A DNA stretch of 64,000 nt from Balanoglossus misakiensis (taxonomy: Eukaryota; Animalia; Hemichordata): contig CM082586.2 in the NCBI GenBank assembly GCA_040954595.2, positions 4,285,125-4,349,124 on the forward strand. Reading direction: 5' to 3'. Of this stretch, positions 34,057-64,000 are shown in pieces. Positions within the stretch are counted from its first letter, which is position 1. Each line of letters starts with the position of its first letter. A program made the translations under genes and the position numbers. Under the pieces are notes generated by a model, which saw only the letters and a program-made list of their open reading frames with translations, had not been told where the DNA came from and searched no databases.

Positions 34057-37000
34057 ATGTCGGTAGAGGTTGTCGTCGAGAACTTCATAGATGGGAAATA
34101 CGTGCCCAGCGATGCCCATATCGACAGCTATGACCCGTCCACCGGGGTAGTGTGGGCCAAGATTCCGGACAGTGGCGAAAGGGACATCGAAACGGCCGTA
34201 GCCGCTGCGAACAGGGCATTCGCATCGTGAGTAAATAAGATAAATTCATTTTGTTCAGGTAGGATCAATGGTGCGTTTCGGATGGTTTCCTACATTGTAG
34301 GGCCGTGCGCTGTCACTGATCGGACCGTACCAGTACCACCATAGACAGTACGGTCTATGGTACCACACACAGGCTTGACAGTATACTAGTAACTGTCAGT
34401 GTTACATAATATTTGAGTGCAGCGATTGTATAGATCTTTGCATAGAGTGACCATGATCTGTGTCACACACAGTCTTTGTAAAGGTGTGTTGCCCTGAATG
34501 CTCAATACTTGCGCATACATTTTCTAGCACTATTAAAACCTCATGATCTGCCACTAGCACTATGCTTGTGCAGTCTTACTACAGGAGACTGAATAAGTGG
34601 GTGTGGCACCCATTTATTAGTTACCTTATTCACATTTAAACGTACAGCCACAATCCGAGTTTGATTAAATTTTTGGGAACATGCCCAATGCCATAAGCAA
34701 GCCTATTTAAATGGACCAGTGATAAAGTTGAAATTTTGTATATAAACAACCAAACTACATGTAAATGAAACTTTTATCTTTTCCCCCCCAAGATGGTCGA
34801 CAACTCCAGCTCCGGAACGTTCGCGGATCATGCATAAAATAGCTGATATCCTGGAATCCAGACTGGAAGAGTTTGCCAAGATGGAATCCAGGGACCAGGG
34901 CAAGCCAGTCTCACTGGCCAGGAGTGTGGATATTCCCAGGGCCATCTACAACTTCCGGTTCTTTGCGTCAACTATTCTACATGTTAAAAATCAGTAAGTT
35001 GGTCATTGTCAGTGTTATTCAAATGCTCATGTACATGACAAAAATTTGCTGAATGAAGAGATATATATTCCAATGTATTTTTGCAGATCAACAGTCATGG
35101 AAGACAGGGGCTGTATCAACTACACAACTCGTACGCCCGTCGGTGTGGCTGGTTTGATCAGCCCGTGGAATTTGCCGCTGTACCTGTTAACTTTCAAGAT
35201 AGCTCCTTGCATAGCGACCGGGAATACGTGTGTCTGTAAGCCGAGCGAGATGACCTCGGTGACGGCTTGGATGCTGGGGACGGTGTTGAATGAAGCCGGT
35301 AAGTGTTCTTGAGGGTGGTAAGTGTTAACTCGAATTTGGTAAGTCGACATCTAATCAAGTGCTGTATTACTGGTATGCATTGTAGAGAGACAACATTCAG
35401 TGTAATTAAATGTCAGGGAATGTGTTGAATGAAGCTTGTAAGTGAACATGAAGCTGATGAAACAAAGTGCGATCAGTTTTACTGACAGAGAGCCATACAT
35501 GTACATGTAACACATTTCTTTTATGTCTGTGGTCTGTGAGGACGCAAGAAAGTGATCGTGACTTGAGTCAATGTTTTTCACCTTCAGGTTTACCTGCTGG
35601 AGTAGTGAATATAGTGTTTGGAACGGGACCTCGCGCTGGCAGTGCCCTGGTCAAACATCCTGATGTGCCACTTGTGTCCTTCACTGGAAGTACACCCACT
35701 GCTGAGAAAATCAGACAAGACTGTGCTCCTTTCTGTAAAAAGTTATCACTAGAGGTCAGTCGACCGGTCATTAGGGACTCGGAATAGTGTATTTAGTGAC
35801 TAATGCCTTTGTCAAATCCTTAAATATTGCCGTAATAAGACAATTTTCAGTTTGTATTAAAGCTGTCTGATTGATGCTCAAAATGATCGGCAAACACATT
35901 CTGTTTGACTCTCAGCTCGGTGGAAAGAACCCATGCCTTGTATTCGATGATGTGAATTTAGACGAATGTGTCGCCACCAGTGTGAAGTCGAGCTTCGCCA
36001 ACCAGGGCGAGATCTGTCTCTGCAGTAGTAGGATCTTTGTACAGAAGGGTGTCTATGATGCGTTTCTGGAGAAATTTGTCGAAGAGGCCAGGTCAGTGTG
36101 CCAGGACTACTAGTATTATTTTCAGTGCATCAATTTCGATGAAGAATGCATCACCACCACCATGGTTTGGTCCAAATCCATAATGGCAGACCTGGCATTT
36201 TGTTCTTCTGTTGCAGGAAAATCAAAGTCGGCGTACCGTATGAGGACGCCACGAATATGGGAGCTCTTGTCAGCAAAGAACATCTAGCAAAGGTCAAAGG
36301 TTATGCCAGTCTTGCCAGGGAAGATGGTGGAACGGTCCATTGTGGCGATGGGGTGGATCCTGAACCGGACTTGCCAGCGAAACACAGAGGGGTAAGTTTA
36401 ACACTTTAGTATTCACTGTGATTGTCTGATATGAAACTCTTCCCACTCCTGACCCGAAATCTGATGGAACCATGTAATTAAGTTATTTCTTGGTGATGCA
36501 AAGATTGTTCATCTTCCTGTCTTTTATTTGCACTTTCCTAGTTTGTCCTTTGGACATGTCTTCAAAAACTGTCCCAGATTCTTATAACTTTCTTAGAATT
36601 CGAAATAAGACAATTTACACAAACTAAGAAATGAGAAAAATGTTCCTTAAACTTTTGACTGCAATTGTGAAAAAACAAATCAGTCTTTCTGGGTAAGACA
36701 TACACTTTTTCAAGTACATGTAAATCATTCTAAATGCGTCCTTTTATTTAAAGATGCAAAAGAAACAAACACAGATTTTGGTGATACAAATGTCAAATTC
36801 ATATAATGAGCTTGCCATTGATGTGTTGGTCTTTGGTTGGGGCTAGAATAATTTGGGAGTTTATTATCCAAATACACATTTATAAGTTGGTTAAAATTGA
36901 TGTTTCTTTAGAGACAATGGAACGCATGCACAGATGTCCAGCAATGACCAGCTTTCTCATTTTGGCAATTTCACCCCCCAAAAAATCATTAGATAAAAAT

Positions 37001-40000
37001 TCCGGCTAAAAAAACGGTATCAATCAAGTGTTTATGCATATCGCCTGACTATCGACCTGCTTGAAGTCCTGATCAATCTGATATGCCAGTCCACTGCAAT
37101 AACCTTTACCATCTAGTTGTATACCATGATTGATCGTTAAATAAATAACAGAGTGTCTAATCTGTGTGTCAGGGCACTGGCTATTGGGTGCCTGACAATA
37201 GCCTCGGCCTGAACTTTGTACTCATCGCAGCCATTAACAAAAGCTGTAACCTCTGCGAGCTCGCGTCTGTAAATTTCCAAAATCAATAAGTTTCTCTCAC
37301 GCTGCAGTTACTTTGTATCAACAATGACTACCGCTATTCCGAAACCAAATCTGTTAGATGTTCTGGAGAAATTCGGTGAAGGCTCGCTGTACTGTCTGGC
37401 TTGCTCGAAGTTACTGAAGAATCCAAAATGTCTGCCGTGCCTTCATACATTTTGTGAAGGCTGTCTGTTACCAGCGGACGAGAAACAAGAAAATCTGGTG
37501 TGTAAGGCCTGCGGTAAACAGCACGTAATTCCTGATAATGGCATAAAGGAGTTTAAAGACAACCCCTTTATGAGGTCTCTGCTACAAGAAGTTGCAAAGC
37601 TGGAGAAGCAACTCAGTGATCGTGCCGGTGACTTGGGTAACTGCCGATGTGAGGTGGGCACCCATGCTAAGCATATCTGCATACGATGTCGACAGAAGTG
37701 TTGTGATGTGTGCGCCGGTCAACACCGAGATCACTCGCATCTGGTGGTTACTTTAGCAGAGAGGAAGGTGGACAACAGATCAGCGTTGTCTTGCACCATT
37801 CACAAGGAAGAGGAGGTGAAATTATTTCGTGTCATAGACCAGATGCCAGTGTGTGTCTTCTGTGCTGTCACCAAGCATGACAAGAATTTCCTCAAAGATC
37901 TGACTGATGACCTGGTAAAGGAAAAGGCGAAAGACTTGGTACGTGAGGTACGTAAATTAGAGGGCAAGGCCCACGAAGTTGAGAGGAGGGGAAACGACAT
38001 CGCAGCCAACAGCGAAAAGGTAGAAAATACCAACAGGCGAGAAAAAGAGAAGCTGAAAGAGAAAGGCCGGGAGATTAGAAGAGTAATCGCAAGGGAAGAG
38101 CAGAGACTGGCAGATGTACTTACAGAAGCTAACGACACAAAAGTGAAAGATAATCAAACGAGGATGGCGCAACTGGAGATGACGTACGGGTACATCTCAG
38201 TCCTTTGCACTTATGTAGAGAGTATGCTGCAGCAAGGGAAAGAAGGTGGAATTGAACTGCTGAAAAAAAGAGCCAGCCTGATGACCTGCGTGAAACAGGT
38301 GCGTGACACAGATACTCAGCCAGGAATTGATAAAGTGCCATCCACGTTTCAACCCAATAATAACGTGAGTGTCCCTGGGGTGCTTGGTCGACTGACACAT
38401 ACGAAGAAATCAGCATTCAACAGGTTGAATCTCGCAACACTCATGAACATTGTTGTACAAATACTTCTTGTTGTGGTGGTATGTTGGGTGTGGGATCACG
38501 GTCTGCCATGGCTTGCCGCAACCGGGCCAAACTATGCAATAAACGGTTCTGATGTAGTTGTCACAAACACTGGGGATGTCAAAGTTGCCAGAGGTGACTA
38601 CACCCGTTTGCTGGTGAAAACCAAAGACAACCAGAGCGATCTGGTGGTACCATGTCACAAATTAATTGCCCAACTAAGGAATTACGACCAACATGTTCTG
38701 TCAAAACTCCCAGTGGTTGACAACAACAATGGAACGTGCAGTGTCACTGTACCGGGACAAGTAATTGGTAACTATAAAGTAACAATGGCGATTGGAAACC
38801 AAGCCATACAGGGTTCGCCAGTTGATATTTCTGTTATAATGGATGGATTCATGAAGTACGCAACCAGTGGCTCAGCCATAATTGTCACTAACACTGATGT
38901 TGTCAAAGTTCCCAGAGGTGACTACACCAGTTTGCTGGTGAAAACCAAAGACAACCAGAGCGATCTGGTGGTACCATGTCACAAATTAATTGCCCAACTA
39001 AGGAACTACGACCAGCATGTTCTGTCAAAACTCCCAGTGGTTGACAACAACAATGGAACATGCAGTGTCATCCTGCAGGAAATAATTGTTGGAAACTATA
39101 CAGTAACCATAGCGATTGGAAACCAGGCCATAAAAGGGTCGCCACTTAGTATATCAATCACACAACTCTGGAAAACTATAGAAAGTGATGGGTCTACATA
39201 TGGACAATTCAAATCCCCAGTTGGCTTGGCTGTAACAAAAGACTCAGATTTGGTAATTGCTGATACACACAACAATAGATTACAAGTAGTAAAAATAGAT
39301 GGAAATGTCAAGAAAAGTTTTTCATTTTACAAAGATGACAGTGGGAAAATTTTACAAACTTCTGTCAGGAACAGACAGATTTTTTATTTTTTGTTTGTTT
39401 CTTTTCCTTTCTTTTTGTGTTTGTTTTGTTTCTTTTATTGTTTATTTTCAGTAGTTACCTAAAATTTATTTTTGTTGACCACATAGGTAATTGTATCAAA
39501 CTATTTGTTGTTTAGTGGATACAATTTGTTGCAAAAAAGAGTTATGTAATTTTGAGTAAGATGGGTTTCGATTGGTGGGGCCGTGACTCTAGTATGTCCA
39601 GTACATTATGTTGATTCTAATTTCTTTTTTATACAGATGGAACTCATTACAAATAGATTAATTTTAGTTGGCTATTAATTTAATTTGAACTTTGAAGTCT
39701 AATGTTCACTCTTGAATTACATAGTGAAAGTTTGCGACAATTTCCAGACCTACACCAAAATTTAATGTTATAATTCAGCTTTTGTGTAGTATTTGTATAC
39801 CTACCTGTCCAGTGAAATTGAAACGTTTAATATATAATAAGCATTACTTTGTATTGCGAGATGCATTAAGCTAAAATTTTGTAAGAATTTGACTTTTGTG
39901 TAAAAAAGTATTAATCACCGCTTTTGCATAAACAGTGTCAAGTAAATACTCTAGTGTTAATTAGAATCAGTTGACAACACGGAATTAACAACTTTATGTT

Positions 40001-41689
40001 TGTGACATTTTAAAATTTGAGCTGTGAGCCTCATCCACATATATATCAATGGTTGATGTATAGCAAGTTCATTCTTTTTCAACTTTTATCAGAGTTTTAC
40101 TTTATGAGCGACTTTATCATTCTGCGTAACTATAGCTTTGCTGTAGATACAAAGTTTAATTTGTTGTAGTGACAATAGGTGATATATAACACTTGTCTAA
40201 AATCTGTAGGCTGATTATATCTCAATAAATAAGAATATATTCCAGCAAAATATGTATTTGTAGTGTATGCGGTACAATAGGATGAATGTTGTGACTGTAT
40301 AAAGTGTATTGGTATAACACATACAATCCCACAAACTTTGTGTTACAAGTGTTATTGGATAATTAAAGGTCTTTGATTAATGTGTGAGAAATGTTATCCA
40401 ATGGTGTAATGTGTGAAGACAAAGATTCGCCAACTTAATTATAAGTTCATAATAGTGAAATAGGCATTGGTGACTTTTACACACAGCATGTGAAAGGTGT
40501 TGATGCCAAAAGTCACCAAAACCATCCTCGGAAGAAAACCAACAGAGCTATATACAGACCCACAGCCAACCCCAAAGCAGCAATAACTATCCAGTCTCCC
40601 TCATGTGCAAATTAATGTATTTTACATTTCCTTTTCACAAGCCCCCTTTTCAGTGAAACATCCATCTTGAATCAGATTGCAAGTTGTGTTAATAATGTGT
40701 GTGCTTTGGTTTGTCCACCATTTCTTTCCTACAGGGATATTTCATGAAGCCAACAGTGGTGACAGGCTTGTCCGACAATTCACGCTGTATGCAAGAAGAA
40801 ATCTTTGGTCCAGTGGTCTGCATCACACCATTTGACACTGAGAAAGAGGTCAGTCTGTCTGGGTCATTGACTTTTTATTTAGGGTTAGTGAGTGGGTGGA
40901 CCCCAAACTAGCCTGGACTGCACAACTATCTTGTTTAGTTGGATGATGTATTGTTGCCATTTTAATGATAAAATTTGGAAACTATTTGCCATATCAGAGT
41001 AGTGACTAAAGGTACATGATTTTGCAGGCAGTTCTGTGTTGTACAAACAATTATCATATCTCTTGATACCTGCATGTGTGTGTAGATGGGTGCATTGGTA
41101 TTTGCATGACTAGGCAGATGAGCGCTCATGTAACCTTTGACCCTTTCTACCTGTCAGGTGATCGAGAGGGCCAATGGTGTCAAGTATGGCCTGTCAGCCT
41201 GTGTTTGGACAAGGGACGTCGGAAAGACCCACCGAGTGGCACAGAAACTACATGTGAGTATTACCCACTGGCTGTTTATTTATCACGACTTTGTCAGCAT
41301 TTGACTGCTTCATCAACATAAAAACATGCAAATGGTATTTCAAAATTATAAAGCATATTTCGCAAGGGAGGATTTTGACCGCGGGTTGTCATTTTTAGCC
41401 AAGACTTGTTTCCTCCAGTGAGTGTCAGAATGAGACACTGTGAATAACCACGGTCACTCCACACAGTGGAATAACCAAGGAGTGTGTGAGATTTAAATGC
41501 ATTGTCCCTAACAGAAACTTTGGCATATTTTTTTATATCCAGGCCGGAACTGTATGGGCCAACTGTTGGTTTATCCGGGATCTAAATATGCCATTCGGTG
41601 GAATGAAGTCCTCGGGAATAGGCCGGGAAGGAGACAAAGATTCCGTGGACTTCTACACAGAAGAAAAGGTCATCTGCATCAAGATGTAG
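34057..41689 (+). CDS. ALDH8A1: 2-aminomuconic semialdehyde dehydrogenase ALDH8A1, intact copy; exons 34057-34226, 34793-34993, 35087-35298, 35588-35754, 35916-36091, 36217-36391, 40735-40848, 41158-41253, 41543-41689
   Basis: Nine GT-AG exons in frame; [27 protein letters not shown], catalytic LSLELGGKNP and [31 protein letters not shown]. Confidence 0.93.
37324..39462 (+). pseudogene. Nested intronless TRIM copy 1 (RING-Bbox-CC-TM-2x filamin) with most of the NHL propeller deleted; truncated ORF or pseudogene
   Basis: 712-aa ORF; relative to copy 2, a 99-nt in-frame deletion at ~39335, then ~500 nt replaced by a T-rich tract (~39378-39470); the original end [13 protein letters not shown] survives after the new stop at ~39474-39515. 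Confidence 0.8.
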
Positions 41690-42479: not shown

Positions 42480-42695
42480 GATTTTTCGACCACATCCACA
42501 AAATTTTATGAGTTTTTGTAGTTCCAAAAATAGAACATGTGTACTAAATTCAATATTAACCTGTACACCAGGTTTTGAGATATCATGTAAACAAGTACAA
42601 CCGGCAGACAGACAGGCATGCTCACACTCACAGAGAAATTGATATAACTTTTACCCCCCACGTGATCATATGATCACGTGCGTTGATGATATAGA
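42480..42695 (+). mobile_element. Interspersed element remnant ending in the perfect 22-bp palindrome CACGTGATCATATGATCACGTG (42659-42680; copy at 53902-53923)
   Basis: Short (CAGA)n tract followed by a terminal hairpin; element boundaries approximate. Confidence 0.4.
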
Positions 42696-43158: not shown

Positions 43159-43600
43159 AACCCCGGTGCGAGGTATAAAAGACCCCCCAAATCAGTGGCG
43201 AATCTTAATGCCGTTTGACTGACAACAGACAACACCAACGATCTTGGCTCTATGAAAATCGGCCCAAACAGGTCCAAGCATAAAGAATTACACCACACAA
43301 CGACAGTAGTTGGCTTTATAAACATACACAACATAAAGTTATCGACGAAAAAGTACACGAGCTTTTGAAACAACGATGATTTTGGGAGAAATCTGGTTTC
43401 AGTGCTTTTCAGAAGCGTCCCTGGGAAACAATAACCACGCCATTCAAACAGTTGTCAATCGCGTAGAGGTGTAAAGTGTTCAATTATTTTCTATGTACAT
43501 GAGAGCAATTACACAGTCATTATGCGCGACGACCACTCCCAAATAAACAACTATACAAACACACGTTAATCCGAACCCCGGTACTTTCCGCACCGGGGTT
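43159..43600. mobile_element. ~440 bp non-autonomous element with 12-bp terminal inverted repeats, TA-flanked, present only after unit 1
   Basis: TA|AACCCCGGTGCG...CGCACCGGGGTT|TA; extra hairpin AACCCCGGT/ACCGGGGTT at the right end; absent at the paralogous site 54405-54414. Confidence 0.7.
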
Positions 43601-43650
43601 TACACGCTCATGTGTAGGACTATCCATTGGTTCTGCAAGTGGAGCATTTA

Positions 43651-44763: not shown

Positions 44764-45559
44764 TTACTACACGAGACTGAATAAGTGGGTGTGGCACCCA
44801 TTTATTAGTGACCTTATTCACATTTAAATGTACAGCCACAATCCGAGTTTGATTAAATTTTTGGGAACATATGCCCAATGCCATAAGTAAGCATATTTAA
44901 ATGGACCAGTGATAAAATTGAAATTTTGTATAAACAACCAAACTACATGTAAATGAAACTTTTATCTTTTCCCCCCAAGATGGTCGACAACTCCAGCTCC
45001 GGAACGTTGATCGCGGATCATGCATAAATTTAAATAGCTGATATCCTGGAATCCAGACTGGAAGAGTTTGCCAAGATGGAATCCAGGGACCAGGGCAAGC
45101 CGGTCTCACTGGCCAGGAGTGTGGACATTCCCAGGGCCGTCTACAACTTCCGGTTCTTTGCGTCAACTATTCTACATGTTAAAATCAGTAAGTTGGTCCT
45201 GGTCAGTGTTATTCAAACGCTCATGTACAAAAACTTGCTGAATGAAGAGATATATATTCCAATGTATTTTTGCAGATCAACAGTCATGGAAGGCAGGGGC
45301 TGTATCAACTACACAACTCGTACGCCCGTCGGTGTGGCTGGTTTGATTAGCCCGTGGAATTTGCCGTTGTACTTGTTAACTTTCAAGATAGCTCCGTGCA
45401 TATAGCAACTGGGAATACGTGTGTTTGCAAGCCGAGCGAGATGACCTCGGTGACGGCTTGGATGCTGGGGAAAGTGTTGAATGAAGCTGGTAAGTGTTCT
45501 TGAGGGTGGTAAGTGTTAACTCGAATTTGGTATACAGTAAGTCAGCATCTGCATGATGC

Positions 45560-46257
45560 TGAAATAGACTTACTGAATGGCTCGCTTTGGTGAACCAACC
45601 ATCGCAGCACGCAACAAAGACGGTCAACAACAGGCACACCACACGTTACATGTATTTCCTTGCTTATGGAAACTTTTTAATTACTACAACTAAACATTGG
45701 TAAATATAAAATGACTGTACACTGAGGAAAAAACACAGTAAAAATAAATGACTACCTTAAATGTGACCAGGTGTGGGAAATGAAAAACTAAAGTCCAAGC
45801 TTCCGTAGCGCACGACGAACGCGACCAGCACCACGGCAGTCCCAACAGCGACGTTCAGTCCGAGTAGCGTTCTGGCACAATTCCCCGGTAGACGGCACGG
45901 CTTTCGGACGAATTCCCCATGAGGTAGCACGACTTCTGGGCGCGGTTTCCAGACCAGGACAGCATGAAACAACACGGCTTCTGGGCGCGGTTTCCAGACC
46001 AGGACAGCATGAAATACAGCACAGCTTCTGGGTGCGGTTTCCTGTGTATCAAGAAATAAGGCTTCCAAGCCGGCGAGGAACAGAACAGCTCACACGGGCA
46101 AGTCCAAATTAGTAGCTACGACGCAACACAACGTGCGGGCTTTTTATATGGGGAAAATAATGAATGCACCACACCTGGTCAAGCAAATATTCAAATTACG
46201 AAATCAAGCGAAAACACACCTGGTCACAAAACAACAGCAAACTTCTCCTACGTAACA
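45560..46257 (-). mobile_element. Probable solo LTR (Gypsy-like) in intron 3 of ALDH8A1 copy 2
   Basis: Absent from unit 1; minus strand reads TGTTACG...TATTTCA; TATAAAAAG (~46140) and ATTAAA (~45677) on minus strand; internal ~46-bp tandem repeats; degenerate 4-bp target duplication (empty site GTGC). Confidence 0.6.
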
Positions 46258-48090: not shown

Positions 48091-50793
48091 ATGACTACCG
48101 CTATTCCGAAACCAAATCTGTTAGATGTTCTGGAGAAATTCGGTGAAGGCTTGCTGTACTGTCTGGCTTGCTCGAAGTTACTGAAGAATCCAAAATGTCT
48201 GCCGTGCCTTCATACATTTTGTGAAGGCTGTCTGTCACCAGCGGAAGAGAAACAAGAAAATCTGGAGTGTAAGGCCTGCCGTAAACAGCACGTAATTCCT
48301 GATAATGGCATAAAGGAGTTTAAAGACAACCTCTTTATGAGGTCTCTGCTACAAGAAGTTGCAAAGCTGGAGAGGCAACTCAGTGATCGTGCCGATGACT
48401 TGGGTAACTGCCGATGTGAGGTGGGCACCCATGCTAAGCATATCTGCATACGATGTCGACAGAAGTGTTGTGATGTGTGCGTCGTTCAACACCGAGATGA
48501 TCACTCGCATCTGGTGGTTACTTTAGCAGAGAGGAAGGTGGACAACAGATCAGCGTTGTCTTGCACCATTCACAAGGAAGAGGAGGTGAAATTATTTCGT
48601 GTCATAGACCAGATGCCAGTGTGTGTCTTCTGTGCTGTCACCAAGCATGACAAGAATTTCCTCAAAGATCTGACTGATTCCCTGGTAAAGGAAAAGGCGG
48701 AAGACTTGGTACGTGAGGTACGTAAATTAGAGGGCAAGGCCCACGAAGCTGAGAGGAGTGGAAACGACATCGCAGCCAACAGCGAAATGGTAGAAAATAC
48801 CAACAGGCGAGAAAAAGAGAAGCTGAAAGAGAAAGTCCGGGAGATTAGAAAAGTAATCGCAAGGGAAGAGCAGAGACTGGCAGATGTACTTACAGAAGCT
48901 AACGACACAAAAGTGAAAGATAATCAAACGAGGATGGCGCAACTGGAGATGACGTACGGGTACATCTCAGTCCTTTGCACTTATGTAGAGAGTATGCTGC
49001 AGCAAGGGAAAGAAGGTGGAATTGAACTGCTGAAAAAAAGAGCCAGCCTGATGACCTGCGTGAAACAGGTGCGTGACACAGATACTCAGCCAGGAATTGA
49101 TAAAGTACCATCCACGTTTCAACCCAATAATAACGTGAGTGTCCCTGGGGTGCTTGGTCAACTGACACATACGAAGAAATCAGCATTCAACAGGTTGAAT
49201 CTCGCAACACTCATGAACATTGTTGTACAAATACTTCTTGTTGTGGTGGTATGTCGGGTGTGGGATCACGGTCTGCCATGGCTTGCCGCAACCGGACCAA
49301 ACTATGCAATACACGGTTCTGATGTAGTTGTCACAAACACTGGGGATGTCAAAGTTCCCAGAGGTGACTACACCAGTTTGCTGGTGAAAACCAAAGACAA
49401 CCAGAGCGATCTGGTGGTACCATGTCACAAATTAATTGCCCAACAAAGGAATTATGACCAGCATGTTCTGTCAAAACTCCCAGTGGTTGACAACAACAAT
49501 GGAACATGCAGTGTCACTGTACCGGGACAAGTAATTGGTAACTATAAAGTAACCATGGCGATTGGAAACCAAGCCATACAGGGTTCGCCAGTTGATATTT
49601 CTGTTATAATGGATGGATTCATGAAGTACGCAACCAGTGGCTCAGCCATAATTGTCACAAACACTGATGTTGTCAAAGTTCCCAGAGGTGACTACACCAG
49701 TTTGCTGGTGAAAACCAAAGACAACCAGAGCGATCTGGTGGTACCATGTCACAAATTAATTGCCCAACAAAGGAATTACGACCAGCATGTTCTGACAAAA
49801 CTCCCAGTGGTTGACAACAACAATGGAACATGCAGTGTCATCCTGCAGGGAATAATTGTTGGAAACTATACAGTAACCATAGCGATTGGAAACCAGGTCA
49901 TAAAAGGGTCGCCACTTAGTATATCAATCACACAACTCTGGAAAACTATAGGAAGTGCTGGGTCTTCATATGGACAATTCAACTTCCCAGTTGGCTTGGC
50001 TGTAACTAAAGATTCAGATTTGGTAATTGCTGATAGAGACAACAATAGATTACAAGTAGTAAAAATAGATGGAAATGTCAAGAAAAGTTTGTCATTTTAC
50101 AAAGAAGGAAAATTAACAGAAATTCGGCCATTTGATTTAGCAATATCAGATGATAATAAATATTTTATAACAGATCGTATTAGTAGAGAAATAGTTGTAA
50201 GTGATGACAGTGGGGAAATTTTACAAACTTTTGGCAAGAGCAGACTCATGTACCCTCGCTGTATTGCCATTAGCCCAATCACTGGCAGTGTTTATGTAAC
50301 AGAATGGGACGGGAAGACTGGTGACACAGGCACAGACACAAGCAGGCATGGTTTATGGAAATACACACAGGATGGCGAGTACATTACATCAATCGGAAGT
50401 TATGGAAAGGGCCATGGCCAGTTTAATTCACCTTACTTTATGGCATTTGACAGATTTGGATACTTGTTCGTATGTGATTTTAATAACGCGCGTGTCCAGG
50501 TGTTTGATTCAAATGATCAGTTTGTACGTGCATTTGGCACCTACGGAGATGGAAACGGACAGTGCAAACGTCCAACCGGAATAGTCGTTAGTGAGGATGA
50601 CTTTGTGTATGTAAGTGATTATCCTGCTGGCATTATTAACAAATTTGACACCAATGGCAACTTTATCAGCCGTATTGACGATGACAGTGATGGGTTAAAA
50701 TTTCCACATGGGCTTGCTCTGACAAAGGATGAACCTAATCGTCTTGCTGTTGTTGACTTCAAAGGTAATTGTATCAAACTATTTGTTGTTTAG
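48091..50793 (+). CDS. Nested intronless TRIM-NHL E3 ligase copy 2, 900 aa (RING, 2 B-boxes, coiled coil, predicted TM helix, 2 filamin/Ig repeats, ~6 NHL repeats)
   Basis: RING CLAC...[10 protein letters not shown]...CKAC; hydrophobic [18 protein letters not shown]; filamin motif [10 protein letters not shown]...GNQAIQGSP twice; NHL repeats GQFNFPVGLAV, GQFNSPYFMAFD, LKFPHGLAL; uninterrupted ORF. Confidence 0.92.
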   Translation: MTTAIPKPNLLDVLEKFGEGLLYCLACSKLLKNPKCLPCLHTFCEGCLSPAEEKQENLECKACRKQHVIPDNGIKEFKDNLFMRSLLQEVAKLERQLSDRADDLGNCRCEVGTHAKHICIRCRQKCCDVCVVQHRDDHSHLVVTLAERKVDNRSALSCTIHKEEEVKLFRVIDQMPVCVFCAVTKHDKNFLKDLTDSLVKEKAEDLVREVRKLEGKAHEAERSGNDIAANSEMVENTNRREKEKLKEKVREIRKVIAREEQRLADVLTEANDTKVKDNQTRMAQLEMTYGYISVLCTYVESMLQQGKEGGIELLKKRASLMTCVKQVRDTDTQPGIDKVPSTFQPNNNVSVPGVLGQLTHTKKSAFNRLNLATLMNIVVQILLVVVVCRVWDHGLPWLAATGPNYAIHGSDVVVTNTGDVKVPRGDYTSLLVKTKDNQSDLVVPCHKLIAQQRNYDQHVLSKLPVVDNNNGTCSVTVPGQVIGNYKVTMAIGNQAIQGSPVDISVIMDGFMKYATSGSAIIVTNTDVVKVPRGDYTSLLVKTKDNQSDLVVPCHKLIAQQRNYDQHVLTKLPVVDNNNGTCSVILQGIIVGNYTVTIAIGNQVIKGSPLSISITQLWKTIGSAGSSYGQFNFPVGLAVTKDSDLVIADRDNNRLQVVKIDGNVKKSLSFYKEGKLTEIRPFDLAISDDNKYFITDRISREIVVSDDSGEILQTFGKSRLMYPRCIAISPITGSVYVTEWDGKTGDTGTDTSRHGLWKYTQDGEYITSIGSYGKGHGQFNSPYFMAFDRFGYLFVCDFNNARVQVFDSNDQFVRAFGTYGDGNGQCKRPTGIVVSEDDFVYVSDYPAGIINKFDTNGNFISRIDDDSDGLKFPHGLALTKDEPNRLAVVDFKGNCIKLFVV

Positions 50794-53700: not shown

Positions 53701-54462
53701 ATTTTATTTTGTTTATAACTTCATTGATTTTTCGACCACAACCATAAAATTTTATGAGATTTTGTCGTTCCAAACATAGAACCTGTGTACGAAATTTAAT
53801 ATTAACCTGTACAGCAGGTCTTGAAATATCATGTAAACAAGTATAACCGACAGACAGACAGGCATGCTCACACTCGGAGAAAATGATATAACTTTTACCC
53901 CCACGTGATCATATGATCACGTGCGTTGATGATATAGAGAGCGTGGGGCGCCCTCCGTGCCCATTGTGTGCACATGGGCTCATTCTCCAACGAGTGTTGA
54001 AAGACAAATGTTGCCGTGTACACCAGACAATATTCAGGTAGGCCCTGTACGTTTCTTTAAATGTTTTTTGGGGTAGGAGGAAAGAGAGGGAGAGGTTAAG
54101 ATTGAATGATTAATTGATTCCCGATCTAAAAATAACAATTGAAACGACATATCTTAAAACAGTTTGAAGTATGTATTATTGATCGCGTGCAGATATGATG
54201 AAACAAGACAATTTTGAATTATTCCCTAGCCCATTAGTGACGACAATCGTCTGTGGTACTTCTTAAATACGTTATAACCATGTGCATTAAGCCTAATTCT
54301 CGTTTCTGTCAAACATCTAGCTTCTTGAAACTTACGTAAGACAAATTGGTATCGGCTGTGTTCTTACATAGACGAGTTAAAGGGCAAAAGTCGCCACGGG
54401 CGTTTAATGAAATACACGCTCATGTGTAGGACTATCCATTGGTTCTGCAAGTGGAGCATTTA

Positions 54463-55416
54463 GGGACCGTTCAGTTTTTACGGCCGGGGGGGGCGGCAAA
54501 ATCCAGGGGGGGTCACTTAAATTTTGAAGTCCAAAAGGGGGGGTCATCTGGTGTTTTTTTAAACGTTTAGGGGGGTGGGTCACATACTTTTGCCACCGAA
54601 CTTTTGCTTTTGAGTCCACAAAATTGCAGTTTCGCGCCCTTTATTTTACAAAATTTTCTAATGTGGGAGGAGGACACCCCCTCCCACACCCACACCCTTC
54701 ATTCTCCGCCACATTTCGTTTTTGCTGGTTTGTCTAGTGTACCAGGGCAGGTGCTTGCCACCCCAACCCCACCGATGATAATATTTAACAAAGTAAATAC
54801 ATAAAGGAGAAGAGAATAATCGTTTAAACAATTTCGCATAACTGATAGTTTCGCGCTGCATCTTCTATATACTAGAAGTTTTAAAAATGATGTCATGACG
54901 AAGATGACGCCAAATCTTCTTACTTTGAGTGGAGTGGCAAAAAGTAAAATTGGTCCTCCCAAACATTGAGATAATTTGCTTTTGAGTTCATTTAAATGCA
55001 ACTTTGAGCACCGTATTGTACAAAATTTTCTTATGTGGGAGGGAGACACCCACCCCCGCCACTTTTCTTGTTTTACCAATTCTAGCAACAATTGTATTGA
55101 CTTGTCATTTTAATTTGGTCATAGATTTCTTAATTGCAACAATATACTATTATATACTTCAATAATACTATAAAAAAAGTTATAATTGAGGTGTGAGGAG
55201 CCTCATTCCCTTTATTGCATACAGTATACATAGGATCAGGACGGCTAATGTTTTCGGCGTGGGGGGGGGGGGTTATCATATTTTTGGGTCTGTCAAAGGG
55301 AGGTCATCATTTTTTGGTCATGGGTGAATGGGGGGGGGGGGGTCGGCCTGATTTTGAAAACCGATGACACAAACTTGCCGCCCCCCCCCCCCGGGCCGTA
55401 AAAACTGAACGGTCCC
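54463..55416. mobile_element. Second copy of the PIF/Harbinger-like element, at the unit 2/3 junction
   Basis: Same TIRs and TTA flanks (54460-54462, 55417-55419); one internal subrepeat fewer than the first copy. Confidence 0.85.
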
Positions 55417-56213
55417 TTACTACAGGAGACTGAATAAGTGGGTGTGGCACCCATTTATTAGTGACCTTATTCACATTTAAATGTACAGCCACAATCCGAG
55501 TTTGATTAAATTTTGGGAACATATGCCCAATGGCATAAGTAAGCATATTTAAATGGACCAGTGATAAGTTTTGTATAAACAACAAAACTACATGTAAATG
55601 AAACTTTTATTTTTCCCCCCAAGATGGTCGACAACTCCAGCTCCGGAACGTTGATCGCGGATCATGCATAAAATAGCTGATATCCTGGAATCCAGACTGG
55701 AAGAGTTTGCCAAGATGGACTCCAGGGACCAGGGCAAGCCGGTCTCACTGGCCAGGAGTGTGGATATTCCCAGGGCCGTCTACAACTTCCGGTTCTTTGC
55801 GTCAACTACTAGTATTCTACATGTTAAAATCAGTAAGTGGGTCCTTGTCAGTAATATTCAAACGCTCATGTACATGACAAAAACTTGCTGAATGAAGATA
55901 TATATTATTCCAATGTATTTTTGCAGATCAACAGTCATGGAAGACAGGGGTTGTATCAACTACACAACTCGTACGCCCGTCGGTGTGGCTGGTTTGATTA
56001 GCCCGTGGAATTTGCCGTTGTACTTGTTAACTTTCAAGATAGCTCCGTGCATATAGCAACCGGGAATACGTGTACGCGTGTGTGTGTAAAGATGAGCGAG
56101 ATGACCTCGGTGACAGCATGGATGCTGGTGTTGAATGAAGCTGGTAAGTGTTCTTGATGGTGGTAAGTGTTAATTCGAATTTGGTATACAGTAAGTCAGC
56201 ATCTGCATGATGC

Positions 56214-56913
56214 TGAAATAGACTTACTGAATGGCTCGCTTTGGTGAACCTACCAGCGCAGCACGCAACAAAGACGGTCAACAACAGGCACACCACACGT
56301 TATTTCCTTGCTTATGGAAACTTTTTAATTACTACAACTAAACATTGGTAAATATAAAATGACTGTACACTGAGGAAAAAACACAGTAAAAATAAATGAC
56401 TACCTTAAATGTGACCAGGTGTGGGAAATGAAAAACTAAAGTCCAAGCTTCCGTAGCGCACGACGAACGCGACCAGCACCACGGCAGTCCCAACAGCGAC
56501 GTTCAGTCCGAGTAGCGTTCTGGCACAATTCCCCGGTAGACGGCACGGCTTTCGGACGAATTCCCCATGAGGTAGCACGACTTCTGGGCGCGGTTTCCAG
56601 ACCAGGACAGCATGAAACAACACGGCTTCTGGGCGCGGTTTCCAGACCAGGACAGCATGAAATACAGCACAGCTTCTGGGGGCGGTTTCCTGCAGACCAG
56701 TGTATCAGGAAATAAGGCTTCCAAGCCGGCGAGGAACAGAACAGCTCACACGGGCAAGTCCAAATTAGTAGCTACGCTGCAACACAACGTGCGGGCTTTT
56801 TATATGGGGAAAATAATGAATGCACCACACCTGGTCAAGCAAATATTCAAATTACGAAATCAAGCGAAAACACACCTGGTCACAAAACAACAGCAAACTT
56901 CTCCTACGTAACA
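56214..56913 (-). mobile_element. Probable solo LTR, duplicated copy in unit 3
   Basis: Same sequence and site as 45560-46257; flanks ATGC / GTGC. Confidence 0.6.
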
Positions 56914-58708
56914 GTGCTGTATTATGTATATTATTATATACCACCATATTCTGTGGGGATGGTGACACAAGAAAGTGTTCGTGACCAGACTCAATGTTTT
57001 CACCATCAGGTTTACCAGCTGGAGTTGTGAATATAGTGTTTGGAACGGGACCTCGCGCTGGCAGTGCCCTGGTCAAACACCCTGATGTGCCACTTGTGTC
57101 CTTCACTGGAAGTACACCCACTGCTGAGAAAATCAGACAAGACTGTGCGCCTTACTGTAAAAAGTTATCATTAGAGGTCAGTCAATCGGTCATTATGAAC
57201 TCGGAATAGTGTATTTAGTGACTAATGCCTTTGTGAAATCCTTAAATATTGCCGTAATAAGACAATTTTCAGTCTGTCAGATTGATGCACATAATGATCG
57301 ACGGACACATTCTGTTTGACTCTCAGCTCGGTGGAAAGAACCCTTGCATCATATTCGATGATGTGAATTTAGACGAGTGTGTCGCCACCAGTGTGAAGTC
57401 GAGCTTCGCCAACCAGGGCGAGATCTGTCTCTGCAGTAGTAGGATCTTTGTACAGAAGGGTGTCTATGATGCTTTTCTGGAGAAATTTGTCGAAGAGGCC
57501 AGGTCAGTGTGCCAGGACTACTAGGATTCTTTTCAGTGCATCGGTTTCGATGTTGAATGCATCACCACCACCATGGTTTGGTCCAAATCCATAATGGCAG
57601 ACCTGGCATTTTGTTCTTCTCTTGCAGGAAAATCAAAGTCGGCGTACCGTACGAGGACGCCACGAATATGGGAGCTCTTGTCAGCAAAGAACATCTAGCA
57701 AAGGTCAAAGGCTATGCCAGTCTTGCAAGGGAAGACGGCGGAACGGTCCATTGTGGCGATGGGGTGGATCCTGAACCGGACTTGCCAGCGAAACACAGAG
57801 GGGTAAGTTTAACACTTTAGTATTCACTGTGATTGTCTGATATGAAACTCTTCCCACTCCTGACCCGAAATCTGATGGAACCATGTAATTAAGTTATTTC
57901 TTGGTGATGCAAAGATTGTTCATCTTCCTGTCTTTTATTAGCATTTTCCTAGTTTGTCCTTTGGACATGTCTTCAAAAACTGTCCCAGATTCATATAACT
58001 TTCTTAGAATTCGAAATAAGACAATTTATACAAACTAAGAAATGAGAAAAATGTTCCTTAAACTTTTGACTGCAATTGTGAAAAAACAAATCAGTCTTTC
58101 TGGGTAAGACATACACTTTTTCAAGTACATGTAAATCATTCTAAATGCGTCCTTTTATTTAAAGATGCAAAAGAAACAAACACAGATTTGGGAGATACAA
58201 ATGTCAAATTCATATAATGAGCTTTCCATTGATGTGTTGGTCTTTGGTTGGGGCTAGAATAATTTGGGAGTTTATTATCCAAATACACATTTATAAGTTG
58301 GTTAAAATTGATGTTTCTTTAGAGACAATGGAACGCATGCACAGATGTCCAGCAATGACCAGCTTTCTCATTTTGGCAATTTCACCCCCCAAAAAATCAT
58401 TAGATAAAAATTCCGGCTAATAAAACGGTATCAATCAAGTGTTTATGCATATCGCCTGACTATCGACCTGCTTGAAGTCCTGATCAATCTGATATGCCAG
58501 TCCACTGCAATAACCTTTACCATCTAGTTGAATACCATGATTGATCAATAAATAACGGAGTGTCTAATCAGTGTGTCGGGGCACTGGCTATTGACAGGCG
58601 CCTCACAATAGCCTCGGCCCGAACTTTGTACTCATCGCAGCCATTAACAAAAGCTGTAACCTCTACGAGCTCGCGTCTGTAAATTTCCAAAATCAATTTG
58701 TATCAACA

Positions 58709-61378
58709 ATGACTACCGCTATTCCGAAACCAAATCTGTTAGATGTTCTGGAGAAAGTTGGTGAAGGCTCACTGTACTGTCTGGCTTGCTCGAAGTTACT
58801 GAAGAATCCAAAATGTCTGCCGTGCCTTCATACATTTTGTGAAGGCTGTCTGATACCAGCGGACGAGAAACAAGAAAATCTGGTGTGTAAGGCCTGCGGT
58901 AAACAGCACGTAATTCCTGATAATGGCATAAAGGAGTTTAAAGATAACCCCTTTATGAAGTCTCTGCTACAAGAAGTTGCAAAGCTGGAGAAGCAACTCA
59001 GTGATCGTGCCGATGACTTGGGTAACTGCCGATGTGAGATGGGCACCCATGCTAAGCATATCTGCATAGGATGTCCACAGAAGTGTTGTGATGTGTGCGT
59101 CGTTCAACACCGAGATGATCACTCGCATCTGGTGGTTACTTTAGCAGAGAGGAAGGTGGACAACAGATCAGCGTTGTCTTGCACCATTCACAAGGAAGAG
59201 GAGGTGAAATTATTTCGTGTCATAGACCAGATGCCAGTGTGTGTCTTCTGTGCTGTCACCAAGCATGACAAGAATTTCCTCAAAGATCTGACTGATTCCC
59301 TGGTAAAGGAAAAGGCGGAAGACTTGGTACGTGAGGTACGTAAATTAGAGGGCAAGGCCCACGAAGCTGAGAGGAGTGGAAACGACATCGCAGCCAACAG
59401 CGAAATGGTAGAAAATACCAACAGGCGAGAAAAAGAGAAGCTGAAAGAGAAAGTCCGGGAGATTAGAAAAGTAATCGCAAGGGAAGAGCAGAGACTGGCA
59501 GATGTACTTACAGAAGCTAACGACACAAAAGTGAAAGATAATCAAACGAGGATGGCGCAACTGGAGATGACGTACGGGTACATCTCAGTCCTTTGCACTT
59601 ATGTAGAGAGTATGCTGCAGCAAGGGAAAGAAGGTGGAATTGAACTGCTGAAAAAAAGAGCCAGCCTGATGACCTGCGTGAAACAGGTGCGTGACACAGA
59701 TACTCAGCCAGGAATTGATAAAGTACCATCCACGTTTCAACCCAATAATAACGTGAGTGTCCCTGGGGTGCTTGGTCAACTGACACATACGAAGAAATCA
59801 GCATTCAACAGGTTGAATCTCGCAACACTCATGAACATTGTTGTACAAATACTTCTTGTTGTGGTGGTATGTCGGGTGTGGGATCACGGTCTGCCATGGC
59901 TTGCCGCAACCGGACCAAACTATGCAATACACGGTTCTGATGTAGTTGTCACAAACACTGGGGATGTCAAAGTTCCCAGAGGTGACTACACCAGTTTGCT
60001 GGTGAAAACCAAAGACAACCAGAGCGATCTGGTGGTACCATGTCACAAATTAATTGCCCAACAAAGGAATTATGACCAGCATGTTCTGTCAAAACTCCCA
60101 GTGGTTGACAACAACAATGGAACATGCAGTGTCACTGTACCGGGACAAGTAATTGGTAACTATAAAGTAACCATGGCGATTGGAAACCAAGCCATACAGG
60201 GTTCGCCAGTTGATATTTCTGTTATAATGGATGGATTCATGAAGTACGCAACCAGTGGCTCAGCCATAATTGTCACAAACACTGATGTTGTCAAAGTTCC
60301 CAGAGGTGACTACACCAGTTTGCTGGTGAAAACCAAAGACAACCAGAGCGATCTGGTGGTACCATGTCACAAATTAATTGCCCAACAAAGGAATTACGAC
60401 CAGCATGTTCTGACAAAACTCCCAGTGGTTGACAACAACGATGGAACATGCAGTGTCATCCTGCAGGGAATAATTGTTGGAAACTATAAAGTAACCATAG
60501 CGATTGGAAACCAGGCCATAAAAGGGTCGCCACTTAGTATATCAATCACACAACTCTGGAAAACTATAGGAAGTGCTGGGTCTTCATATGGACAATTCCA
60601 ATCCCCATATGGCTTGGCTGTAACAAAAGACTCAGATTTGGTAATTGCTGATACACACAACAATAGATTACAAGTAGTAAAAATAGATGGAAATGTCAAG
60701 AAAAGTTTGTCATTTTACAAAGACGAAAAATTAACAGAAATTTGGCCACATGATTTAGCAATATCAGATGATAATAAATATTTTATAACAGATCGTATTA
60801 ATAGAGAAATAGTTGTAAGTGATGACAGTGGGGAAATTTTACAAACTTTTGGCAAGAACAGACTCATGTACCCTCGCTGTATTGTCATTAGCCCAATCAC
60901 TGGCAGTGTTTATGTATCAGACGTCGGCATGCATGTTTTATGGAAATACACACAGGATGGCAAGTACATTAAATCAATCGGAAGTTATGGAAAGGGCCAT
61001 GGCCAGTTTGATTCACCTTTATTCATGGCATTTGACAGATTTGGAAACTTGTTCGTATGTGATATTTATAACGCGCGTGTCCAGGTGTTTGATTCAAATG
61101 ATCAGTTTGTACGTGCATTTGGCACCTACAGAGATGGAAACGGACAGTTAAAATATCCAATTGGAATAGTCGTTAGTGAGGATGACTTTGTGTATGTAAG
61201 TGATTCTTATGCTGTCACTGTTAACAAATTTGACACCAATGGCAACTTTATCAGCCGTATTGACGATGACAGTGATGGGTTAAAATTTCCACGTGGGCTT
61301 GCTCTGATAAAGGATGAACCTAATCGTCTTGCTGTTGTTGACTCCACAGGTAATTGTATCAAAGTATTTGTTGTATAG
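58709..61378 (+). CDS. Nested intronless TRIM-NHL E3 ligase copy 3, 889 aa, same architecture as copy 2
   Basis: Uninterrupted ORF collinear with copy 2; differences cluster in the RING region and the NHL repeats. Confidence 0.92.
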   Translation: MTTAIPKPNLLDVLEKVGEGSLYCLACSKLLKNPKCLPCLHTFCEGCLIPADEKQENLVCKACGKQHVIPDNGIKEFKDNPFMKSLLQEVAKLEKQLSDRADDLGNCRCEMGTHAKHICIGCPQKCCDVCVVQHRDDHSHLVVTLAERKVDNRSALSCTIHKEEEVKLFRVIDQMPVCVFCAVTKHDKNFLKDLTDSLVKEKAEDLVREVRKLEGKAHEAERSGNDIAANSEMVENTNRREKEKLKEKVREIRKVIAREEQRLADVLTEANDTKVKDNQTRMAQLEMTYGYISVLCTYVESMLQQGKEGGIELLKKRASLMTCVKQVRDTDTQPGIDKVPSTFQPNNNVSVPGVLGQLTHTKKSAFNRLNLATLMNIVVQILLVVVVCRVWDHGLPWLAATGPNYAIHGSDVVVTNTGDVKVPRGDYTSLLVKTKDNQSDLVVPCHKLIAQQRNYDQHVLSKLPVVDNNNGTCSVTVPGQVIGNYKVTMAIGNQAIQGSPVDISVIMDGFMKYATSGSAIIVTNTDVVKVPRGDYTSLLVKTKDNQSDLVVPCHKLIAQQRNYDQHVLTKLPVVDNNDGTCSVILQGIIVGNYKVTIAIGNQAIKGSPLSISITQLWKTIGSAGSSYGQFQSPYGLAVTKDSDLVIADTHNNRLQVVKIDGNVKKSLSFYKDEKLTEIWPHDLAISDDNKYFITDRINREIVVSDDSGEILQTFGKNRLMYPRCIVISPITGSVYVSDVGMHVLWKYTQDGKYIKSIGSYGKGHGQFDSPLFMAFDRFGNLFVCDIYNARVQVFDSNDQFVRAFGTYRDGNGQLKYPIGIVVSEDDFVYVSDSYAVTVNKFDTNGNFISRIDDDSDGLKFPRGLALIKDEPNRLAVVDSTGNCIKVFVV

Positions 61379-64000
61379 TGGATACAATTTGTTGCAAAAA
61401 AGAGTCATGTAGTTTTGAGTAAGATGGGTTTCGATTGGTGGGACCGTGACTCTGGTATGTCCAGTACATTATGTCGATTCTAATTTCTTTTTATACAGAT
61501 GGAACTCATTACAAATAGATTAATTTTAGTCAGCTATTAATTTTATTTGAACTTTGAAGTCTAATGTTCACTCTTGAATTACATATTGAATGTTTGTGAC
61601 AATTTCCAGACCTACACCAAAATTTAATGTTCTAATCCAGCTTTTGTGTAGTATTTGTATACCCCCTACCTGTCCAGTGAAATTGAAACGTTTAATATAT
61701 AATAAGCATTACTTTGTATTGCGAGATGCATTGTTGTTAAAAGTTAAAATTTTGTAAGAATTTGACTTTTGTGTAAATAAGTATTAATCACCGCTTTTGC
61801 ATAAACAGTGTCAAGTAAATACTCTAGTGTTAATTAAAATCAGTTGACAACACAGAATTAACAACTTTATGTTCGTGACATTTTAAAATTTGAGCTGTGA
61901 GCCTCATCCACATATATATCAATGCTTGATGTATAGCAAGTTCATTCTTTTTCAACTTTTATCAGAGTTTTACTTTATGAGCGACTTTATCATTCTGCGT
62001 AACTATAGCTTTGCTGTAGATACAAAGTTGAATTTGTTGTAGTGACAATAGGTGATATATAACACTTGTCTTAAATCTGTAGGCTGATTATATCTCAATA
62101 AATAAGAATATATTCCAGCAAAATATGTATTTGTAGTGTATGCGGTACAATAGGATGAATTTTGTGACTGTATAAAGTGTATTGGTATAACACATACAAT
62201 CCCACAAACTTTGTGTTACAAATGTTATTGGATAATTAAAGGTCTTTGATTAATGTGTGAGAAATGTTATCCAATGGTGTAATGTGTGAAGACAAAGATT
62301 CTCCAACTTAATTATAAGTTCATAGTAGTGAAATAGGCATTGGTGACTTTTACACACAGCATGTGAAAGGTGTTGATGCCAAAACTATCCTCAGGAGAAA
62401 ACCAGCAAAGCTATCACGGACCCACAGCCAACCCCCAAAACAGCAATAACTATCCAGTCTCCCTCATGTGCAAATTAGTGCTTTTTACATTTCCTTTTCA
62501 CAAGCCCCCTTTTCAGTGAAACATCCATCTTGAATCAGATTGCAAGTTGTGTTAATAATGTGTGTGGTTTGGTTTGTCCAATATTTCTTTCCTACAGGGA
62601 TATTTCATGAAGCCAACAGTGGTGACGGGATTGTCCGACAATTCACGCTGTATGCAAGAAGAGATCTTTGGTCCAGTGGTCTGCATTACACCGTTTGACA
62701 ATGAGAAAGAGGTCAGTCTGTCTGGGTCATTGACTTTTTATCTAGGGTTAGTGAGTGGGTGGACCCCAAACTGGCCTGGACTGCACAACTATCTTGTTTA
62801 GTTGGATGATGTATTGTTGCCATTTTAATGATAAAATTTGGAAACTATTTGCCATATCAGAGTAGTGACTAAAGGTACTTGATTTTGTAGGCAGTTCTGT
62901 GTTGTACAAACAATTATCATATCTCTTGATACCTGCATGTGTGTGTAGATGGGTGCATTGGTATTTGCATGACTAGGCAGATGAGCGCTCATGTAACCTT
63001 TGACCCTTTCTACCTGTCAGGTGATCGAGAGGGCCAATGGTGTCAAGTATGGCCTGTCGGCCTGTGTTTGGACAAGTGACGTCGGAAAGACTCACCGAGT
63101 GGCACAGAAACTACATGTGAGTATTATTCACTGGCTGTTTATTTATCATGCTTCATCAACATAAAAACGTGCAAATGGTATTTAAATTATAAGCATATTT
63201 CGCAAGAGAGGATTTTGACCGCGAGTTGCCATTTTTCGCCAAGACGTGTTTCCTACATCAAGTGTCGGTATGAGACACTGTGAATAACCAAGGAGTGTGT
63301 GAGATTTAAATGCACTTATTGTCCCTAAAAGTAACTGGCATATTTTTTTATATCCAGGCCGGAACTGTATGGGCCAACTGTTGGTTTATCCGGGATCTGA
63401 ATATGCCATTCGGTGGAATGAAGTCCTCGGGAGTAGGCCGGGAAGGAGGCAAAGATTCCGTGGACTTCTACACAGAAGAAAAGGTCATCTGCATCAAGAT
63501 GTACAATCATGGGAAGATGATGTGGAAAATTTTAAAATAGTACAGATAACCAATTCATTGTACATTGAAGACAGTTACTTCAACGTTAAAATAAAGTATA
63601 GATACTGAATTAAAATTATGTGATGGGATAGGGGTTCAAGTTATGTTTGGTGAAATATATGGTTTTTAAAAAATAATGTGAGTACATGTAACATGCATTG
63701 TTACCTTAATAAAGTTTGTTGAACACACTACCGTTATTAATTCAATTTTTTCATGTAAGTGTAAGGTCAGTGTCCCATAAATTTCATCCCTGTTAACTAC
63801 CAGCTGCCACACATGCACATCAGCTGTGCACTATGAATAAAACTGTCCAGATAAGGTTCAAAATAGCATACCATTGTTAAAGAAATGGCAATGGCCACAC
63901 TTTGAGGTCACTTTGCTGACCTAATGCATAGATGAGCTACCCAAATAAGTGACCTAGGTTGTTTTGGATTTCACAAAGTTGGCAACTACTGGGTCACGTT

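Follow-up and report, generated by a model that had tools for sequence, protein, structure and literature searches.

What keeps a tandem array in which two genes, one nested within an intron of the other, have been copied together? The question is raised by a 64,000-nucleotide stretch of the acorn worm Balanoglossus misakiensis (contig CM082586.2, positions 4,285,125 to 4,349,124 of the forward strand; hereafter the window, in whose own coordinates all positions are given), where an ALDH8A1-type aldehyde dehydrogenase gene carries a TRIM-NHL gene in intron 6 and the pair recurs in three units. An earlier reading made from the letters alone (the sequence-only reading) saw here a reciprocal decay, with the array maintained for the passenger TRIM and duplication resolving the nesting into one functional gene per unit. 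Such a resolution would offer a route out of nesting; the evidence favours a truncated duplicate and a likely segregating null. On balance, and taking its parts jointly, we read the locus as a partial tandem duplication of the back part of ALDH8A1 with its nested TRIM-NHL gene, bounded by miniature inverted-repeat transposable elements (MITEs), and as an allele-capturing array of a likely receptor-like TRIM E3 ligase. The array would likely be kept for the several divergent versions of the TRIM-NHL binding face that it holds on one chromosome.

Junctions of the array and fate of the host gene

Comparison of the window with itself, on which the repeat layout is based, revealed three direct repeats from position 34575 on, with a period of ~10.7 kb and 91–97% identity, the third being truncated by the window end. 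Contigs from the sample came from X1 (a DNA run), X2 and X3, the last taken as RNA solely because it holds a spliced contig. The host-gene and junction features are as follows.

34057..41689, plus strand: ALDH8A1-type gene of unit 1, nine GT-AG exons, intact open frame of 486 residues (exon matches; spliced X3 contig)
Exons 1-5 of this gene, plus strand: 34057-34226, 34793-34993, 35087-35298, 35588-35754, 35916-36091
Exons 6-9 of this gene, plus strand: 36217-36391, 40735-40848, 41158-41253, 41543-41689
34576..34578, plus strand: empty TTA site in ALDH8A1 intron 1 of unit 1, left edge of the duplicated segment (self-comparison and junction reading)
43159..43600, unstranded: TA-flanked element with short inverted ends, after unit 1, high-copy by depth
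43651..44763, unstranded: junction 1 MITE, inverted ends of 39 nt, TTA on either side, right end abutting the intron-1 TTA, high-copy by depth
44980..52935, plus strand: ALDH remnant of unit 2, exons 2-9; exons 2-3 interrupted by a stop and indels, exons 4-9 in frame; donor of exon 6 changed from GT to AT, that of exon 8 GC
54463..55416, unstranded: junction 2 MITE, same element and site as junction 1, with its own internal indels
55624..63504, plus strand: ALDH remnant of unit 3, exons 2-9; exons 2-3 interrupted by a stop and indels, exons 4-9 in frame but without their stop codon

The host gene of unit 1 is complete, as had been proposed. Searched exon by exon, with no tree, it gave best matches to 2-aminomuconate/2-hydroxymuconate semialdehyde dehydrogenases, and the best structural matches of exon 3 were 2-aminomuconate 6-semialdehyde dehydrogenases. 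Closest likeness to the 2-aminomuconate enzyme together with a whole open frame places it in the ALDH8A1 class, a name that we take to denote this activity. A 1339-nt X3 contig joins exons 2-7, runs on into exon 8 and has the letters of unit 1 at the listed sites that set units 2 and 3 apart from it; unit-1-type ALDH is therefore transcribed and spliced across the TRIM. An in-frame ALDH-TRIM fusion through a candidate acceptor was considered and set aside, the transcript seen joining exon 6 to exon 7.

Units 2 and 3 do lack exon 1, but not through loss. The window has a single copy of exon 1 and of the DNA upstream of it (33900-34574), and at both junctions the right end of the MITE falls exactly at the intron-1 TTA that is empty in unit 1. 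Exon 1 is thus absent from these units because the duplication breakpoint lies in intron 1, at the MITE end, so that the extra ALDH copies were headless at birth. The junction element has the terminal inverted repeats (35-39 nt over the two junctions), TTA/TAA flanks and high copy number of PIF/Harbinger-type MITEs, to which it presumably belongs. The first duplicate would have arisen by recombination between two MITE insertions on different homologues or by alternative transposition; both fit the junctions equally well. Where the TA-flanked element stands after unit 1, a few extra bases are found after unit 2 (about 54405-54416), likely the excision footprint of that element.

The stops and frameshifts reported in the ALDH copies of units 2 and 3 are present, with the correction that the indels are confined to exons 2-3 and that exons 4-9 are frame-intact. 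Three lesions are common to both units (an in-frame TGA, one base missing from exon 2 and two extra bases in exon 3), besides private indels, and one inactivation therefore preceded the split of units 2 and 3. Indels number 7 in the 413 bp of exons 2-3 against 0 in the 875 bp of exons 4-9 (p 0.0003), where 6.3 frameshifts were expected and none was found. Between units 2 and 3 the ALDH shows 21 silent and 7 non-silent differences; over exons 4-9 omega (dN/dS, codon model) is 0.13 for this pair and 0.10-0.11 for each against unit 1, all three pairs departing from 1 at p<1e-4. The copies thus bear the lesions of a pseudogene and not its omega near 1 (0.10-0.13). Decay at CpG sites was rejected as the source of the low values: unit 2 or unit 3 alone carries 21 changes, of which 5 are non-silent where 70% would be predicted under CpG hypermutability, and a single one removes a CpG.

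On the simplest reading, the differences in exons 4-9 were acquired by alleles that still worked and reached the array through unequal crossing-over or conversion, and each unit is likely a mosaic of alleles that were functional until recently. Later crossovers would replace unit bodies by other functional alleles, the damaged 5' cap being inherited. Next to the TRIM propeller, their most divergent part, units 2 and 3 share 1363 bp without a difference, as expected from recent exchange. The dead host gene in this way serves as an internal control, its silent-site record suggesting that the units were taken from functional alleles.

Three further observations concern the unit bodies. In the dead exons (44980-45489, 55624-56143) the small insertions lie mostly at TA dinucleotides and indels outnumber non-silent substitutions; we take the insertions to resemble excision footprints of TA-targeting DNA transposons. 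The interior of intron 3 in unit 1 (35341-35522, 182 bp) is unrelated to that in units 2 and 3 (45532-46291, 56186-56947; 760 bp). Across intron 6 and the TRIM (36392-40734), silent and non-coding divergence between units is 1-3%, against 7-12% at ALDH silent sites, which may mean that this cassette postdates the host alleles or was homogenised.

The nested TRIM-NHL genes

In every unit the TRIM is a single exon in intron 6 on the ALDH strand. Its features are as follows.

48091..50793, plus strand: TRIM-NHL gene of unit 2, 900 residues, single coding exon, six-bladed propeller (open frame, Pfam, model)
48459..49821, plus strand: stretch of 1363 bp without a difference between units 2 and 3, from coiled coil to filamin
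49195..49257, plus strand: predicted membrane helix, residues 369-389, between coiled coil and filamin repeats (hydropathy, low-confidence model helix, like segment in XP_070531764.1)
49936..50790, plus strand: NHL propeller of unit 2, the unit-3 differences clustering on its top-face loops
58709..61378, plus strand: TRIM-NHL gene of unit 3, 889 residues, its blade-3 top loop shortened in frame by 11 residues (deletion also present in X1 and X2)
37324..39462, plus strand: TRIM of unit 1, with RING, B-boxes, coiled coil, hydrophobic helix, two filamin repeats, blade 1 only and a filler-encoded tail
39333..39471, plus strand: propeller lesion of unit 1, a 99-bp in-frame deletion followed by replacement of 504 bp by about 95 bp of T-rich filler

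The 2.7-kb TRIM frames of units 2 and 3 are open, as the sequence-only reading had it. All three copies hold a complete RING with the C3HC4 pattern and eight zinc ligands, although Pfam RING matches fall below the curated cut-off; the ligands of B-box 1 are mostly retained (weak Pfam match), and the coiled-coil helix spans residues 196-304 in the model. The filamin repeat and six-bladed NHL propeller are present in copies 2 and 3. In the AlphaFold model the propeller blocks have predicted local distance difference test (pLDDT) values of mostly 80-96, and the model matches the LIN-41 filamin-NHL and TRIM2/3 NHL structures at about 2 A root-mean-square deviation for the propeller. An atlas lookup placed the full protein in ordinary TRIM-NHL clusters; the same lookup for the helix region returned nothing at 0.9 or more. 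Word-based homologue searches gave few close TRIMs (5 and 15 hits). All nine TRIM relatives whose names were looked up (9/9) come from Ptychodera, Glandiceps or Saccoglossus. The two filamin repeats derive from an internal 324-bp duplication (38530-39153) and are 89-91% alike in all units.

Copies 2 and 3 differ by 62 non-silent and 9 silent changes (46 and 6 of them in the propeller), giving for the whole gene an omega of 2.06 (p 0.044), or 2.48 by the codon model (p 0.009). The top face of an NHL propeller is formed by the loops b-c and d-a, according to the available part of one account (PMC4015489), and we mapped this published definition onto the AlphaFold model for the loop counts; it replaced a first top-face test (19/33) in which positions had been picked after viewing the alignment. 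Differences fell on 24/89 top-loop positions against 3/54 in bottom loops (p 0.002), or 20/83 without the indel zone (p 0.005). Among distant relatives, conservation of top and bottom loops is about equal (0.49-0.51 vs 0.53). Five of the 11 strand differences hit the position that follows the proline of the blade, at the top-face end of strand a, and the 33-bp indel as well as the 6- and 3-bp contig gaps are all in frame and all in top loops. From sequence and model, the top face would serve for binding and be subject to diversifying selection that perhaps predates the duplication; its variable residues would indicate where a ligand binds, if the topology proposed below holds.

That the array is kept for its passenger, as first proposed, therefore stands in part. 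Within units 2 and 3, selection is seen in the TRIM (omega 2.06-2.48, top-face clustering) and not in the ALDH. Open frames are not specific to the passenger, since ALDH exons 4-9 are open too (omega 0.10-0.13), as is the unit-1 TRIM over its first 670 codons (0 frameshifts in a three-way alignment against 8-15 expected); open TRIM frames alone are thus no proof of selection for it.

The unit-1 TRIM has lost most of its NHL domain, as had been noted: five of the six blades are gone and only blade 1 is left. Both joints of the lesion are present in one X1 DNA contig (depth 20.5), so this lesion is no assembly error. No source for the T-rich filler was found within the window; the filler (39377-39462) encodes a strongly hydrophobic 28-residue tail (hydropathy 2.45). 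Were it made, the unit-1 protein would be a partner to the intact copies that lacks a propeller and is possibly anchored twice.

The sole TRIM contig in X3, of 221 nt and depth 4, shows 0 differences to copies 2/3 and 7 to unit 1, a weak hint of copy-2/3-type expression; parts of the TRIM without X3 coverage are evidence neither way. Near 36680-36700 all units share, without a difference, a candidate initiator and donor, and a candidate splice acceptor lies 16 bases before the TRIM ATG. The intron-6 DNA upstream of the TRIM is well preserved, 0.9-1.8% apart among units.

These data also bear on a neutral explanation, in which the duplication captured alleles of a locus already under balancing selection, the extra TRIMs are silent or dispensable and the array drifts as a copy-number variant. 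It would account for ALDH exons as frame-intact as the TRIMs, so that open frames need no selection on the array, for the thin TRIM expression, for the lost acceptor of unit 3 and for an omega of about 1 outside the top face. It sits less well with a sole TRIM contig of copy-2/3 type, with a unit-1 null beside two intact copies, as fits redundancy, and with the 0.9-1.8% distance of the upstream DNA. We regard neutral drift as somewhat unlikely.

Between coiled coil and filamin repeats, residues 369-389 reach a hydropathy of 2.4-2.5 (2.4 by a 19-residue Kyte-Doolittle window), with basic residues on the N-terminal side. We predict a type II single-pass protein whose RING, B-boxes and coiled coil face the cytosol, the filamin repeats and propeller lying outside the cell or in a lumen. 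A like hydrophobic stretch at a like place was found in 1 of 19 relatives, XP_070531764.1 (2.5), the others reaching 1.5 or less. This protein also shares with the array TRIM a filamin-repeat cysteine pair, missing from the other aligned rows shown, that would form a disulphide. Among 18 further proteins one exceeded a hydropathy of 2.0, the amphioxus model P0253, which combines RING, B-box, a Deltex C-terminal domain, collagen and C-type lectin, its hydrophobic helix lying between the TRIM/Deltex and collagen parts. As a lead only, it may be another membrane TRIM receptor or a fused gene model. Were the topology true, a family known for cytosolic RNA binding would have yielded a receptor, at the cell surface or in a lumen, that carries its own ubiquitin ligase.

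Haplotypes in the sample and the remaining alternatives

The X1 depths distinguish four forms in all at 20-28, among them the unit-1 lesion contig (20.5), the unit-3 deletion (21.7) and a fourth propeller form (27.5) that differs at 17 sites and by a 6-bp gap in 190 bases, over DNA absent from unit 1, and that is also found in X2. At an exon-3 site the unit-1 type has depth 40 and the unit-2/3 type 48, and an X1 contig matches unit 1 at 7/7 of the listed sites in the coiled coil that were checked and at which units 2 and 3 are alike. The sample is highly heterozygous (10 differences in 611 bases around exon 1). With four copies, two of unit-1 type, the fourth propeller is most simply placed in the homologue's ALDH-intact unit, whose exon-1 variants contain no stop and where we think it probably sits; it may instead come from a paralogue elsewhere or a fourth unit. 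The lesion, at about single-copy depth, is then likely that of one haplotype and not of all, and the proposed rule of one functional gene per unit likely describes the state of that haplotype. The propeller loss is likely a loss-of-function allele of recent origin that still segregates and is tolerated thanks to the other copies.

The same observations speak to the proposal that duplication released a conflict between host and nested gene, selection then removing one gene from each unit. One intact gene per unit is indeed what this haplotype shows. Reciprocal decay does not, however, appear to have resolved the nesting: the loss of ALDH followed mechanically from the breakpoint, exon 1 never having been copied, and the TRIM is still intronic in every unit. 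Unit 1 retains 2 kb of open TRIM frame and the upstream DNA, so any transcriptional interference would persist; the host mRNA splices normally over the TRIM, and the fourth propeller form likely lies in an ALDH-intact unit. We found no report of reciprocal loss in duplicated nested gene pairs in the open-access library searched, and consider conflict release unlikely.

Alternatively, the assembly may have switched haplotypes and set in tandem, as units 2 and 3, what are two alleles of a single two-unit array. Their distance in non-coding intron 6 (0.9-2.2%) is near the allelic distance at exon 1 (10/611), the four sample copies fit 2+2 as well as 3+1, and no contig spans the array. The two junctions nevertheless differ in flanks and MITE interiors, the window bears no mark of a join, and the homologue's ALDH-intact unit would still bear a propeller; a switch is in our view unlikely.

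Several points weigh against the allele-capturing, receptor-like reading that we prefer. Captured alleles as the source of the differences leave the array itself not proven to be selected. The omega tests are pairwise only, among three copies; for the propeller alone copies 2 and 3 give 2.2 (p 0.06-0.07), outside the top positions 1.0, and the non-propeller part of unit 1 against 2 or 3 gives 0.9-1.0, with no sign there of amino-acid constraint. TRIM expression is supported by the one depth-4 contig, and in unit 3 a 25-bp deletion just upstream of the TRIM removes the candidate acceptor. B-box 2 is degenerate, lacking two zinc ligands relative to XP_070531764.1. The membrane helix has a pLDDT under 50 and contains N and Q, and with four sequons before and five after it the two sides are not discriminated. 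In the host, exons 2-3 are likewise silent-biased (5 silent, 2 non-silent), which a split into old cap and fresh body does not predict, and their decay, mostly by small insertions, is not explained by that split. Contig depth is a rough guide and no copy number, the contigs being collapsed mosaics, and no unit-1 lesion joint was seen among the X2 contigs.

Elsewhere in the window lie UBR5, a HECT ligase gene on the minus strand (about 13200-33300), likely head-to-head with ALDH8A1 with starts probably <1 kb apart; a Cas1p-type acyltransferase gene with long exons (6578-9751, plus strand); and a THEG-repeat gene (154-900, minus strand).

Comparison with known systems

Each piece of the preferred reading has a precedent: transposon-bounded duplication, allele stacking, and subfamily C TRIMs with lineage-specific domain changes. 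In maize, reversed-ends transposition of Ac generates transposon-bounded tandem duplications, as the accessible part of one report describes (PMC3744419). Like these, the present array has a class II element end exactly at the breakpoint and a target-site-like triplet; here, however, the element is a MITE with TTA flanks, and two-insertion recombination fits equally. The heterogeneous duplications of mosquito ace-1 place divergent alleles of one locus on one chromosome, in the portion of the source at hand (PMC6121789). Allele stacking on one chromosome is common to both, and the silent-site pattern in our one sample fits an origin of the copies from segregating alleles. In the present case, by contrast, the capture concerns a nested gene within a truncated host, and an allelic origin is suggested by silent-site patterns rather than population data. 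Allele stacking of the kind envisaged by Haldane thereby becomes testable in a wild invertebrate.

Among TRIM proteins, subfamily C or class VII TRIM-NHL comprises TRIM2, TRIM3, TRIM71/LIN-41 and Brat, and subfamily C shows lineage-specific domain changes, according to the excerpted review (PMC3503706). The array TRIM shares RING, filamin and six-bladed NHL with this class, has a modelled coiled coil and putative B-boxes like it, and differs in its likely membrane helix before two filamin repeats and its single coding exon. The top face of Brat is basic and RNA-binding, in the passages available (PMC4015489), whereas the array propeller has a net charge of -5 to -6 and a hypervariable top face; 16 of its 104 top positions are basic and 10 acidic, the domain being net acidic. 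Also close is an acorn-worm 'TRIM2/45/71-like' expansion, whose best member, Ptychodera flava XP_070531764.1 (38-39%), possesses both the hydrophobic helix and the cysteine pair of the filamin repeat, but a single filamin repeat, an intact B-box 2 and an automatic name only; the helix is missing in 18/19 of the relatives. In the open-access library searched we found no account of an internal membrane helix or hypervariable top face in TRIM-NHL proteins, or of acorn-worm TRIM-NHL diversification. We tentatively raise the possibility of an acorn-worm class of membrane TRIM recognition receptors, in which a hypervariable NHL propeller borne on filamin stalks, extracellular or luminal, would be linked by one helix to a RING ligase in the cytosol, its allele repertoire expanded by transposon-seeded arrays that take up alleles in tandem at the cost of host copies.

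The two halves of the predicted topology have parallels elsewhere. TRIM13 and TRIM59 end in their helix and are not known to have an outer domain. TRIM13 is a membrane E3, according to the title of a reference in the review (PMC3503706), and a place in the membrane is likewise predicted for the array TRIM. The NHL domain of PknD is an extracellular sensor in the excerpt consulted (PMC4015489), facing outward as predicted for the array propeller. The teneurins also have outward-facing NHL domains, and both they and PknD differ in being without the RING-B-box-coiled-coil module.

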